From Staphylococcus phage Machias: a DNA stretch of 64,000 bases. The stretch lies in the sequence record MW349128.1; one strand, written 5' to 3'. The position numbers and the translations under genes were made by a program. The notes beneath the pieces are model-generated. The model made no database searches and was not told where the DNA came from. It saw only the letters and a program-made list of their open reading frames with translations. Shown in pieces: positions 14,988 to 15,178 of this stretch. Every line of letters begins with the position of its first letter. The first letter of the stretch is position 1.

Positions 14988-15178
14988 TTTCACAAAATAA
15001 AAAGATATGAGAGTCGCCTGCGGTCAGCGGGAGACGATAAACGGGTGATAAGCTAATGTCTGATTAGCTTTACAAGGAGTGAGAAGGATCCTTCTCACGT
15101 TAGTCACTGAACCAAGTGTATTTTATACAAGGTCTTGCCTTTATATTTAATATATAAAATCAAGACTTAACAAGACAG
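14988..15178 (+). ncRNA. GC-rich structured RNA downstream of tnpB: candidate omega-RNA scaffold and/or intron P9-3' splice region
   Basis: Local GC far above background; hairpins GAGAAGGATCCTTCTC and AAGCTAAT-GTCTG-ATTAGCTT; ~97% identical to 37356-37552 whereas tnpB ORFs are clearly more diverged. Confidence 0.55.

Follow-up and report, generated by a model that had tools for sequence, protein, structure and literature searches.

Within the 64,000 nucleotides of Staphylococcus phage Machias analysed here (sequence record MW349128.1; the window), two elements of the same build occupy the + strand at 13526-15178 (copy 1) and 35900-37552 (copy 2). Each consists of ~260 nt of 5′ group I-type sequence, a tnpB gene encoding 400 or 401 aa and ~190 nt that run to a terminal G. 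The question raised by this locus is why the nucleotides behind tnpB are conserved far more strongly than the gene itself. Machias is a 274-kb lytic jumbo phage, and uracil-DNA genomes have been reported for it and its relatives (PMC10303552). Introns of these Staphylococcus jumbo phages were reported in the published phage description, and database entries give the tnpB genes no name other than ‘transposase’ or ‘hypothetical protein’. An earlier note on this DNA had proposed an omega-RNA scaffold under purifying selection, a guide taken from exon 2 and a conflict with the 3′ splice site, and this core reading fits everything computed here, i.e. the covariation of helices S1, S2, S3 and S5, the matches of a covariance model (R1), an intact TnpB under selection and the 3′ boundary at 15178/37552. 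The 3′ region is very probably a TnpB guide-RNA (omega-RNA) scaffold of ~170 nt that merges into the 3′ tail of a small group I intron, and each element can with good confidence be regarded as a non-autonomous IStron, combining a small group I intron, tnpB and the omega-RNA scaffold of TnpB. The parts of the 3′ region are as follows:

14988-15012, + strand: A-rich leader from the stop codon to the first helix, conserved between the copies; it could hold a processing site
15013-15035, + strand: stem-loop S1 (stem 15013-15021/15027-15035; loop GGTCA, 15022-15026)
15023-15025, + strand: candidate pseudoknot strand GTC in the S1 loop
15036-15043, + strand: invariant GATAAACG after S1
15044-15131, + strand: middle of the predicted scaffold (S2, lineage-specific hairpin, S3, S4)
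15044-15046/15111-15113, + strand: long-range helix S2
within 15047-15078, + strand: lineage-specific hairpin AAGCTAAT-GTCTG-ATTAGCTT
15079-15098, + strand: GGAG, then hairpin S3, followed by conserved GTTAGTCAC
15117-15129, + strand: AAG, then small hairpin S4
15132-15166, + strand: terminal stem-loop S5 (stem GTCTTG/CAAGAC, 15132-15137/15161-15166; variable apical hairpin 15138-15160)
15167-15178, + strand: tail TTAACAAGACAG, with its 3′ boundary fixed by intron-less alleles
15174-15176, + strand: candidate pseudoknot strand GAC in the tail
15176-15177, + strand: P9.0 strand CA in the tail
15178, + strand: terminal G, 3′ splice site of copy 1
37356-37552, + strand: predicted omega-RNA scaffold of copy 2 (S1 37385-37407; S3 37451-37470; S5 37504-37509/37535-37540)
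37512-37532, + strand: apical hairpin of copy 2, TTTAGATA..TATCTAAA
37541-37552, + strand: tail of copy 2, with terminal G 37552

The scaffold would accordingly be read in the order S1, GAUAAACG, S2 closing a junction that contains GGAG and S3, then S4, S5 and the tail UUAACAAGACAG.

Pairwise alignment of the two copies gave 151 identical nucleotides of 153 (98.7%) for 14988-15140, in line with the near-identity that had been claimed for the ~150 nt after the stop codons. The TnpB proteins are 78.9% identical (~80% had been stated) and their genes 81.6%, and the intron core is 84-88% identical between the copies. Among the four Staphylococcus-phage copies, two from Machias and two from phage LY01, the 172-nt RNA is 92-95% identical, against a neutral expectation of ~55-64%; the third Machias tnpB copy (P0004) was left out of the comparisons. 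The region is also the GC peak of the locus (0.37-0.39 vs ~0.20-0.25 around it), as had been noticed, and the two stable hairpins described before are both present in the minimum-free-energy folds, which have z-scores of -4.1 and -3.5 and are equalled by none of 200 shuffles. Taken together, folding, conservation and the GC peak indicate that the observation is real and not due to chance. The last ~38 nt are 85% identical, with a 2-nt indel, so that the divergence claimed for the last ~35 nt does exist, but it is limited to the ~17-nt apical hairpin (15141-15157/37513-37531), where the shape is kept and the sequence changed, and the final 22 nt (AATCAAGAYTTAACAAGACAG) differ by a single C/T that turns a G-C into a G-U pair and retains the pairing. 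The variable stretch, formerly taken for an element-end/guide region, caps the terminal stem-loop of the scaffold as its apical loop.

Covariation was analysed in 11 RNAs, which were split module by module with all strings checked against the source; the TnpBs of the relatives included are 42-48% identical to those of the window. The results for the four helices are:

S1 (15013-15035): 55 of 63 cells paired; compensatory changes in 3 of 9 pairs; observed value reached by 5 of 5000 strand swaps
S2 (15044-15046/15111-15113): 18 of 18 cells paired; compensatory changes in 3 of 3 pairs; reached by 20 of 5000 swaps
S3 (15079-15098): 71 of 72 cells paired; compensatory changes in 7 of 8 pairs; reached by 0 of 5000 swaps
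S5 (15132-15137/15161-15166): 48 of 48 cells paired; compensatory changes in 6 of 6 pairs; reached by 0 of 5000 swaps

Two other pairings were tried and rejected: a longer S2 (GGTGA/TCACT), as TCAC is invariant in relatives whose 5′ strand differs, and a pairing of GTCTTG with the second CAAGAC in the tail, as ATCTTG/CAAGAT in LY01 copy 2 supports the first CAAGAY.

The same RNA architecture was found at tnpB genes that lie outside introns. Metagenome contigs were scanned with a pattern consisting of S1 followed by GAUAAAYG, which gave at least 120 loci, and in at least 61 of the 120 matches listed the motif stands just after the TnpB C-terminal motif with no intron upstream. The downstream plan at these intron-less loci is that of the window, with a helix strand, GGAG, a nested hairpin, UGAAG, the return strand and AA. 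The covariance model R1, built from 18 intron-less tnpB loci, yielded 12 matches in 114 kb of sequence (the window and relatives), one at each expected site, including one in every related IStron, and none elsewhere; those in the window are 15010-15117 (33.3 bits, E 1e-6) and 37382 onwards (33.1 bits), and the two alignments inspected, those for the relatives L351 and L350, run through S2, GGAG and S3. The identification as a scaffold is derived from these matches together with the position of the region, which extends from the tnpB stop codon to the element end. No Rfam family matched the module of S1 and GAUAAACG in the window elements, and the exact 23-mer of S1 had no match in IMG/VR viral contigs. 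A search of IMG/VR with GGGAGACGATAAAYG was discarded: none of its 90 matches has an upstream S1 stem, and many run into ATG in the manner of a ribosome-binding site and start codon. As a separate observation, the arrangement GTCRCC-hairpin-GGAGAC-KAUAAAYG, followed by a helix strand and GGAG, is very common just 3′ of tnpB in soil, gut and cyanobacterial metagenomes (L228-L347).

The nuclease genes and the exon ends that flank the elements are located as follows:

13785-14987, + strand: tnpB copy 1, 400 aa, 100% identical to the Machias ‘transposase’
36150-37355, + strand: tnpB copy 2, 401 aa
13520-13525, + strand: exon-1 end of copy 1, TTAGAT, in the position of a target-adjacent motif (TAM) and also exon strand of P1, with U13525 in the U-G wobble at the 5′ splice site
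35894-35899, + strand: exon-1 end of copy 2, TCGGAT, in the gyrB-like gene (AGTGAT in intron-less relatives)

Both open reading frames (ORFs) contain the Pfam domains HTH_OrfB_IS605, OrfB_IS605 and Cas12f1-like_TNB and match the structure of ISDra2 TnpB (8BF8) with an E value of 9e-21. The RuvC residues D215, E303 and D387 are kept, with GIDMG, INIEP and DRDxNAAxNI aligning to the RuvC D, E and D, and these residues and the four zinc-finger cysteines are conserved across 29 homologues. With a synonymous divergence (dS) of 0.73 and a ratio of nonsynonymous to synonymous divergence (dN/dS) of 0.17 between the two copies, and values of 0.50-0.76 and 0.10-0.20 among the four Staphylococcus-phage copies, TnpB is, as judged from its sequence, intact and under purifying selection. 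The next closest TnpBs after those of the Staphylococcus phages are only 40-48% identical and come from metagenomic contigs, several with phage-like neighbour genes; the elements that carry them are likewise IStrons, and blocks of their 3′ regions recur in the window. Protein-guided scans of IMG/VR returned only TnpBs of at most 37% identity, a scan of genome contigs only distant TnpBs, and a plasmid tblastn search aimed at the C. botulinum IStron only TnpBs of 27-30% identity, with no close protein match in Clostridium plasmids.

Copy 1 interrupts a large structural ORF (10085... / 15179...) and copy 2 a gyrB-like gene, in which joining of the exons restores LEGLEAVRHRSD|MYVGAIDG. For the mapping of the boundaries, the exons were joined across each element and searched against phage genomes. 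Both queries gave a single ungapped alignment to 8-9 related Staphylococcus jumbo phages (the relatives aligned were S6, PB50, AH12, MarsHill, Madawaska, PALS_2, UFV_DC4, LY01 and SA1), with exact junctions at 13525|15179 and 35899|37553. The exon sequences quoted in the earlier note are correct, and its start of copy 2 was slightly off, the intron starting at 35900 and exon 1 ending at 35899. Since the intron-less alleles fix the 3′ boundary at 15178/37552, the predicted guide would begin at exon 2. LY01 contains two further IStron copies, likewise mapped to the base, one of them at a site that is empty in Machias (window 21382|21383; 21371-21400, within ORF 16802-22045), where the empty GCTGAT|GAATATCATGAACTTGAT stands against GCGGAT|GATTATCATGAATTTGAC in LY01 copy 1. 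The boundaries in Machias and LY01 thus define four insertion sites with presence/absence polymorphism among close relatives. Neither a tnpA gene (Y1 or serine) nor a remnant of one was found in the elements, and the ~80 nt between P9 and tnpB contain no ORF; a tnpB-only state has been reported for many IStron copies.

The intron parts of the elements and their relatives in the window are listed here, with motifs read from the sequence:

13526-13784, + strand: group I intron core of copy 1, with the tnpB ribosome-binding site at its end
13534-13540, + strand: internal guide sequence (IGS) of P1, ACAGTCT, copy 1
13574-13586, + strand: P element, copy 1
13625-13636, + strand: R element, copy 1
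13668-13676, + strand: S element, copy 1
13679-13680, + strand: J7/9 (TG), copy 1
13681-13701, + strand: P9 hairpin, copy 1
13715-13737, + strand: extra hairpin TTAGATA..TATCTAA between P9 and tnpB, copy 1
35900-36149, + strand: group I intron core of copy 2 (IGS CAGTCC; R/S motifs 35998-36043)
~38993-39174, ~51440-51600, ~51650-51800 and ~51900-52050: ORF-less introns of the IStron intron family, one of the four as a probable member, without tnpB or omega-RNA

The core is small, with P1 to P9 in about 180 nt. What is expected of a group I intron was found, i.e. readable P, Q, R and S elements (AATTGCTGGAAAG, AATCAGCATC, GTTCAACGACTAAA and GATATAGTC), a U-G wobble in P1 at the 5′ splice site and a terminal G (15178/37552). 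P1 is formed by AGAU|UGU with ACAGUCU in copy 1 and by GGAU|UG with CAGUCC in the other three Staphylococcus copies, and in the pairwise alignment the two window copies show compensatory differences in P1, P5, P6, P8 and P9. P10, the pairing of exon 2 with the P1 loop, amounts to a weak UGAA:UUCA in copy 1 and has no counterpart in copy 2. The earlier note had placed P9 in the 3′ RNA; it lies at 13681-13701, upstream of tnpB, so that the catalytic core is complete before the ORF, and what the 3′ region contributes to the intron is P9.0 and the terminal G, nothing more. At least three tnpB-less introns in the window share the R/S core motifs (R/S at 39090, 51523 and 51974), as does one in MarsHill, and the window probably contains a fourth. 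One of them, gyrB intron 2, is located at the DAD|DDG Toprim motif after ...GCCGAT, and the remaining ones are clustered in one gene near 51.4-52.1 kb.

The segments from which the guides would be encoded are:

15179-15198, + strand: predicted guide-encoding segment of copy 1, ATGAATAGAACTAATCTGAT, the first 16-20 nt of exon 2, from its position and by analogy with published IStrons
37553-37572, + strand: predicted guide-encoding segment of copy 2, ATGTACGTTGGTGCAATTGA, the start of gyrB exon 2

With such guides, the predicted targets would be ATGAATAGAACTAATC, which forms the empty-allele junction TTAGAT+ATGAATAGAACTAATC, and ATGTACGTTGGTGCAA; a second perfect match to either guide is not present in the window. 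The empty alleles of UFV_DC4 and PB50 read TTAGAT|ATGAATAGAACTAATCT and are identical to copy 1 over the exon-1 end and 17 nt of the target, which means that a natural target for copy 1 exists.

On the 5′ side of the junctions, the TAM formerly proposed (TTAGAT/TCGGAT) appears doubtful, because the empty alleles of three sites have GTGAT, CTGAT or CAGAT where the occupied ones have CGGAT, and because position -4 pairs with the IGS. The flanks examined were window 35894-35899 and 37553-37558, L001 2957-2962, L004 2243-2248 and the empty alleles L353-L355 and L359-L361. Empty counterparts have GTGAT in gyrB (3/3 phages examined), CTGAT at the Machias site of LY01 copy 1, and CTGAT, CTGAC or CAGAT at the empty site in the virion RNA polymerase beta gene. 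All differences between occupied and empty flanks are synonymous, the one in gyrB being a three-base recoding of serine (AGT to TCG), and they recur at -4, +3 and +6. In comparison to phage S6 (98.4% identity over 497 nt), four of the eight differences fall within 6 nt of the gyrB junction (rough binomial ~2e-5). Position -4 always pairs with the last IGS base, as A:U in copy 1, as G:C in the other three Staphylococcus copies and as U:A in L131 and L349, which sit after ATGAT (P1 read by hand). This flank pattern could stem from selection for splicing, from the choice of insertion site, from co-conversion during homing from an unsampled donor or from TAM-dependent sweeps. As the ORF-less gyrB intron 2 also follows ...GAT, this trinucleotide may reflect the intron family as much as TnpB.

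At the other end of the element, the tail would have to serve both the scaffold and the intron. Three bases of the S1 loop can pair with tail positions -5 to -3 in all 11 RNAs, mostly as GUC:GAC and in L351 as GUU:AAC, and L131, which is outside the 11-RNA module alignment, offers AAU:AUU as a variant; as regards a pseudoknot between S1 loop and tail, these pairings are suggestive only. P9.0, in which the two bases joining P7 to P9 pair with -3 and -2 of the tail, takes the form UG:CA in three relatives as well as in the Staphylococcus copies; two relatives have CG:CG, one has UA:UA, and an ORF-less intron has UU:AA. C15176 (-3) would be required by both the candidate pseudoknot and P9.0, which gives the competition between splicing and guide-RNA production suspected before a concrete basis. 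The overlap matches a published IStron, in which pseudoknot strand 2 overlaps the determinants of the 3′ splice site, splicing is repressed by TnpB and scaffold structure, and the outcome, splicing or guide use, is set by how stable the scaffold is, notably in the basal part of its terminal stem-loop (10.1101/2023.11.20.567912; PMC13521648).

Two fates of the transcript can be proposed on this basis. In the first, the scaffold would be bound by TnpB, with the first ~16-20 nt of exon 2, which follow directly, as guide; the complex could then cleave any allele whose guide-matching sequence is directly preceded by a permissive 5′ motif, i.e. an intron-less copy of the host gene, for example in a co-infecting related phage, and repair from the occupied copy would spread the element. 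In the second, the UG of J7/9 would pair with CA of the tail (-3, -2) as P9.0 and position G15178, and splicing would restore the mRNA and sever the scaffold from the guide. A stable S5 beside the splice site would add to this conflict.

Several points weigh against the reading of the region as a guide-RNA scaffold in an IStron. Much of the R1 score comes from the 31-nt pattern that was used to collect the training set of the model. The 11-sequence alignment was hand-curated and anchored on invariant blocks, yet fitted to the structure, and it replaced a MAFFT alignment of the full RNAs in which the 3′ half of the Staphylococcus copies was misaligned. Rfam gave no match at gathering score in the whole window and none with E<10 on both elements, the group I family RF00028 included, and no omega-RNA-like family was matched either; its low-score matches (snoRNA, mt-5S-like) are due to chance. 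Since the Rfam group I model also misses the ORF-less MarsHill intron, the failure of RF00028 is read as low sensitivity of the model to small AT-rich introns. The candidate pseudoknot comprises 3 bp in three variants, and 18% of shuffles pair as fully; the relative L348 misfits P9.0. Three of the four occupied alleles end in CGGAT, and position -4 is T or A in all intron-less alleles examined. As there is no tnpA, the classic role of TnpB in restoring an excised transposon is not applicable, and we know of no TnpB that acts on uracil-DNA.

Some of these points agree with an alternative that we consider unlikely, according to which the region is a true omega-RNA homologue that no longer guides cleavage and is kept for setting the splicing of the host mRNA or for stabilising the tnpB message, with no homing involved. 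Without tnpA there would be no excision to repair, the uracil reported in the phage DNA might not suit TnpB, scaffold structure alone represses splicing in the published system, and the 5′ flank of three of the four occupied alleles differs from that of all known empty alleles. However, a regulator needs no nuclease site, and both the RuvC triad and the zinc finger are intact in a protein that is under purifying selection as a whole; moreover, the four-site polymorphism and the substitutions clustered at the gyrB junction look like homing.

A further proposal, to which we assign somewhat less than an even chance, is that the tnpA-less IStrons home with the help of a guide RNA and pass from one uracil-DNA jumbo phage to another in mixed infections. 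With exon-2 sequence as its guide, TnpB would cut the intron-less allele of an essential gene in the rival phage, and recombination would bring in the IStron along with a few flanking bases. Its footprint, if it is true, would be the polymorphism at four sites, the matching empty targets in PB50 and UFV_DC4 and the synonymous changes at the junctions. Any TnpB target or TAM in these phages would, given uracil-DNA, contain dU instead of dT, and TnpB would have to read the TAM and cut where uracil replaces thymine. Homing between phages, once shown, would be direct natural evidence for RNA-guided intron homing, which has so far only been suggested for tnpA-less IStrons.

The location of the region inside the intron and the intron-derived last ~12 nt, which form part of P9.0, would also be compatible with a peripheral intron domain, i.e. 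a P9 extension that serves folding or the choice of the 3′ splice site and is not a guide RNA. This is very improbable in view of the relatives: in the two introns whose 3′ ends were read, gyrB intron 2 and that of MarsHill, only ~12 nt follow P9 and the region is missing, the S1-S3 architecture also follows tnpB genes without an intron, and deletion of these stems in the published IStron raises splicing. The tail of gyrB intron 2, GGTAACATAAAAG, resembles the IStron tail TTAACAAGACAG, and from this likeness the IStron looks like an intron of the ORF-less type in which tnpB and its RNA have come to separate P9 from the 3′ tail.

Recent gene conversion between copies, in place of selection on the RNA, might explain why several copies per genome share a sharply bounded block of identity. 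The block is, however, conserved in all four copies from two phages, in which S3 and S5 differ by compensatory changes (among the Staphylococcus copies alone, one S5 pair runs through G-C, G-U and A-U, and S3 has been rebuilt twice), and the architecture persists with TnpBs that are only 42-48% identical to those of the window, so that we give this explanation hardly any probability. Improbable in the extreme is a DNA-level right end for a TnpA supplied in trans (IS200/IS605-type subterminal hairpins), to which the termini resembling group A IStrons (T at -1, ...CAG) and the similar hairpins near both ends (13715-13737; 37512-37532) might point, since the elements contain no tnpA, the candidate hairpin is the least conserved part, and covariation that keeps G-U pairs (S5, S2) argues for pairing of RNA rather than DNA.

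The hairpin at 13715-13737 nearly repeats the apical hairpin of the terminal stem-loop of copy 2 (37512-37532). It contains TTAGAT, the exon-1 end of copy 1, and its counterpart in copy 2 has ACGGATA, compared with the exon end TCGGAT. Both may be what is left of end hairpins to which a transposase once bound.

IStrons were defined in 2000 (Braun 2000) and surveyed in 2014 (Tourasse 2014). Group A has IS200/IS605-type ends, is inserted after TTGAT, ATTAT or TTTAT with T at -1 and ends in TCAG, group B has IS607-type ends with a GG flank and a CGG end, and the two groups were reported to have independent origins; copies in C. botulinum phages are already on record. For the C. botulinum IStron, binding of the RNA by TnpB, a 3′ omega-RNA, a guide from exon 2, a TAM at the exon-1 end and antagonism with splicing were established by experiment (10.1101/2023.11.20.567912; PMC13521648), and omega-RNA, guide, TAM and splicing antagonism have also been proposed for C. 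difficile IStrons. According to a 2026 review, IStrons without tnpA could spread by intron homing. The mechanism is already published for IStrons and the Machias elements add a further case, which makes confirmation and annotation the main value of the present analysis.

CboIStron of C. botulinum BKT015925 (IS607-type, group B; Zedaveinyte 2023/2024; Mortman and Sternberg 2026), compared here by description, resembles the window elements in its 5′ group I intron, tnpB and omega-RNA up to the 3′ splice site, in its several stem-loops, in a pseudoknot, a mere candidate in the window, from an early stem-loop to the nucleotides before the splice site and in the use of exon 2 as guide, which is predicted for the window; splicing and guide use are mutually exclusive there. 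The window elements have T where CboIStron has G at -1, their 5′ flank is ...GAT, and they end in CAG rather than CGG; they lack a serine-recombinase tnpA, carry an additional hairpin at 15047-15078 and have a much shorter terminal stem-loop.

With CdISt1 and the CdiIStrons of C. difficile (IS200/IS605-type, group A) the window elements have in common a pentanucleotide ending in GAT (TTGAT there), the U-G wobble, a 3′ end in ...CAG (TCAG there), an IA2-like intron, the absence of tnpA from many copies and an omega-RNA in the 3′ untranslated region of tnpB that overlaps the 3′ splice site. The group A traits T at -1 and terminal CAG are thus present in the window, whereas its flanks are TAGAT/CGGAT and not T-rich, its 3′ end is ACAG, its core of ~180 nt has no obvious P7.1/P7.2, its host is a lytic jumbo phage, and its nearest TnpB relatives include elements with group-B-type ends. 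Among those relatives, L132 (2083-2097), L136 and L348 have TnpBs 45-46% identical to those of the window and IS607-type ends TGGG|...GACGG| (group-B-like, as in CboIStron), and IS605-like ends (..TGAT or ..GGAT|...CAG|) are found in L131 and L349 as well as in the window copies. A single TnpB/omega-RNA lineage thus seems to span both published IStron groups, and the mixed end types are a small surprise given the independent origins reported for groups A and B.

The TnpB-omega-RNA complex of ISDra2 (8BF8, 8EXA, 8H1J) has a homologous nuclease with the same catalytic residues, a guide RNA that originates at the 3′ end of the element and draws its guide from the adjoining DNA, and a TAM of similar form (TTGAT). 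The window proteins are only ~25-30% identical to it, and the elements differ by the presence of an intron, the lack of tnpA and the inapplicability of the transposon-restoring role. Phage group I introns with homing endonucleases (T4 td, I-TevI) resemble the window elements in their location in essential phage genes, in presence/absence polymorphism and in exon changes clustered at the junctions as in co-conversion. In the window, however, the product of the mobility gene would be a nuclease that is guided by RNA and derives its specificity from the neighbouring exon, in place of a fixed protein-DNA recognition.

The locus offers a natural test bed, with compact tnpB-only IStrons in a lytic phage and four sites for which empty alleles have been sequenced in sister phages, and it adds an unusually small intron core and a putative clash between scaffold and splicing for which a single nucleotide used by both would account. 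Beyond that, interest attaches to the possibility that the elements home from one uracil-DNA phage to another, and to the recoding seen in the exon flanks. As a minor observation at the start of the 3′ region, a 4-nt duplication of TTAA distinguishes the tnpB stop codons of the two copies (14985-14991 vs 37353-37363, TAATTTCAC vs TAATTAATTTCAC), and it is also present in LY01 copy 2.

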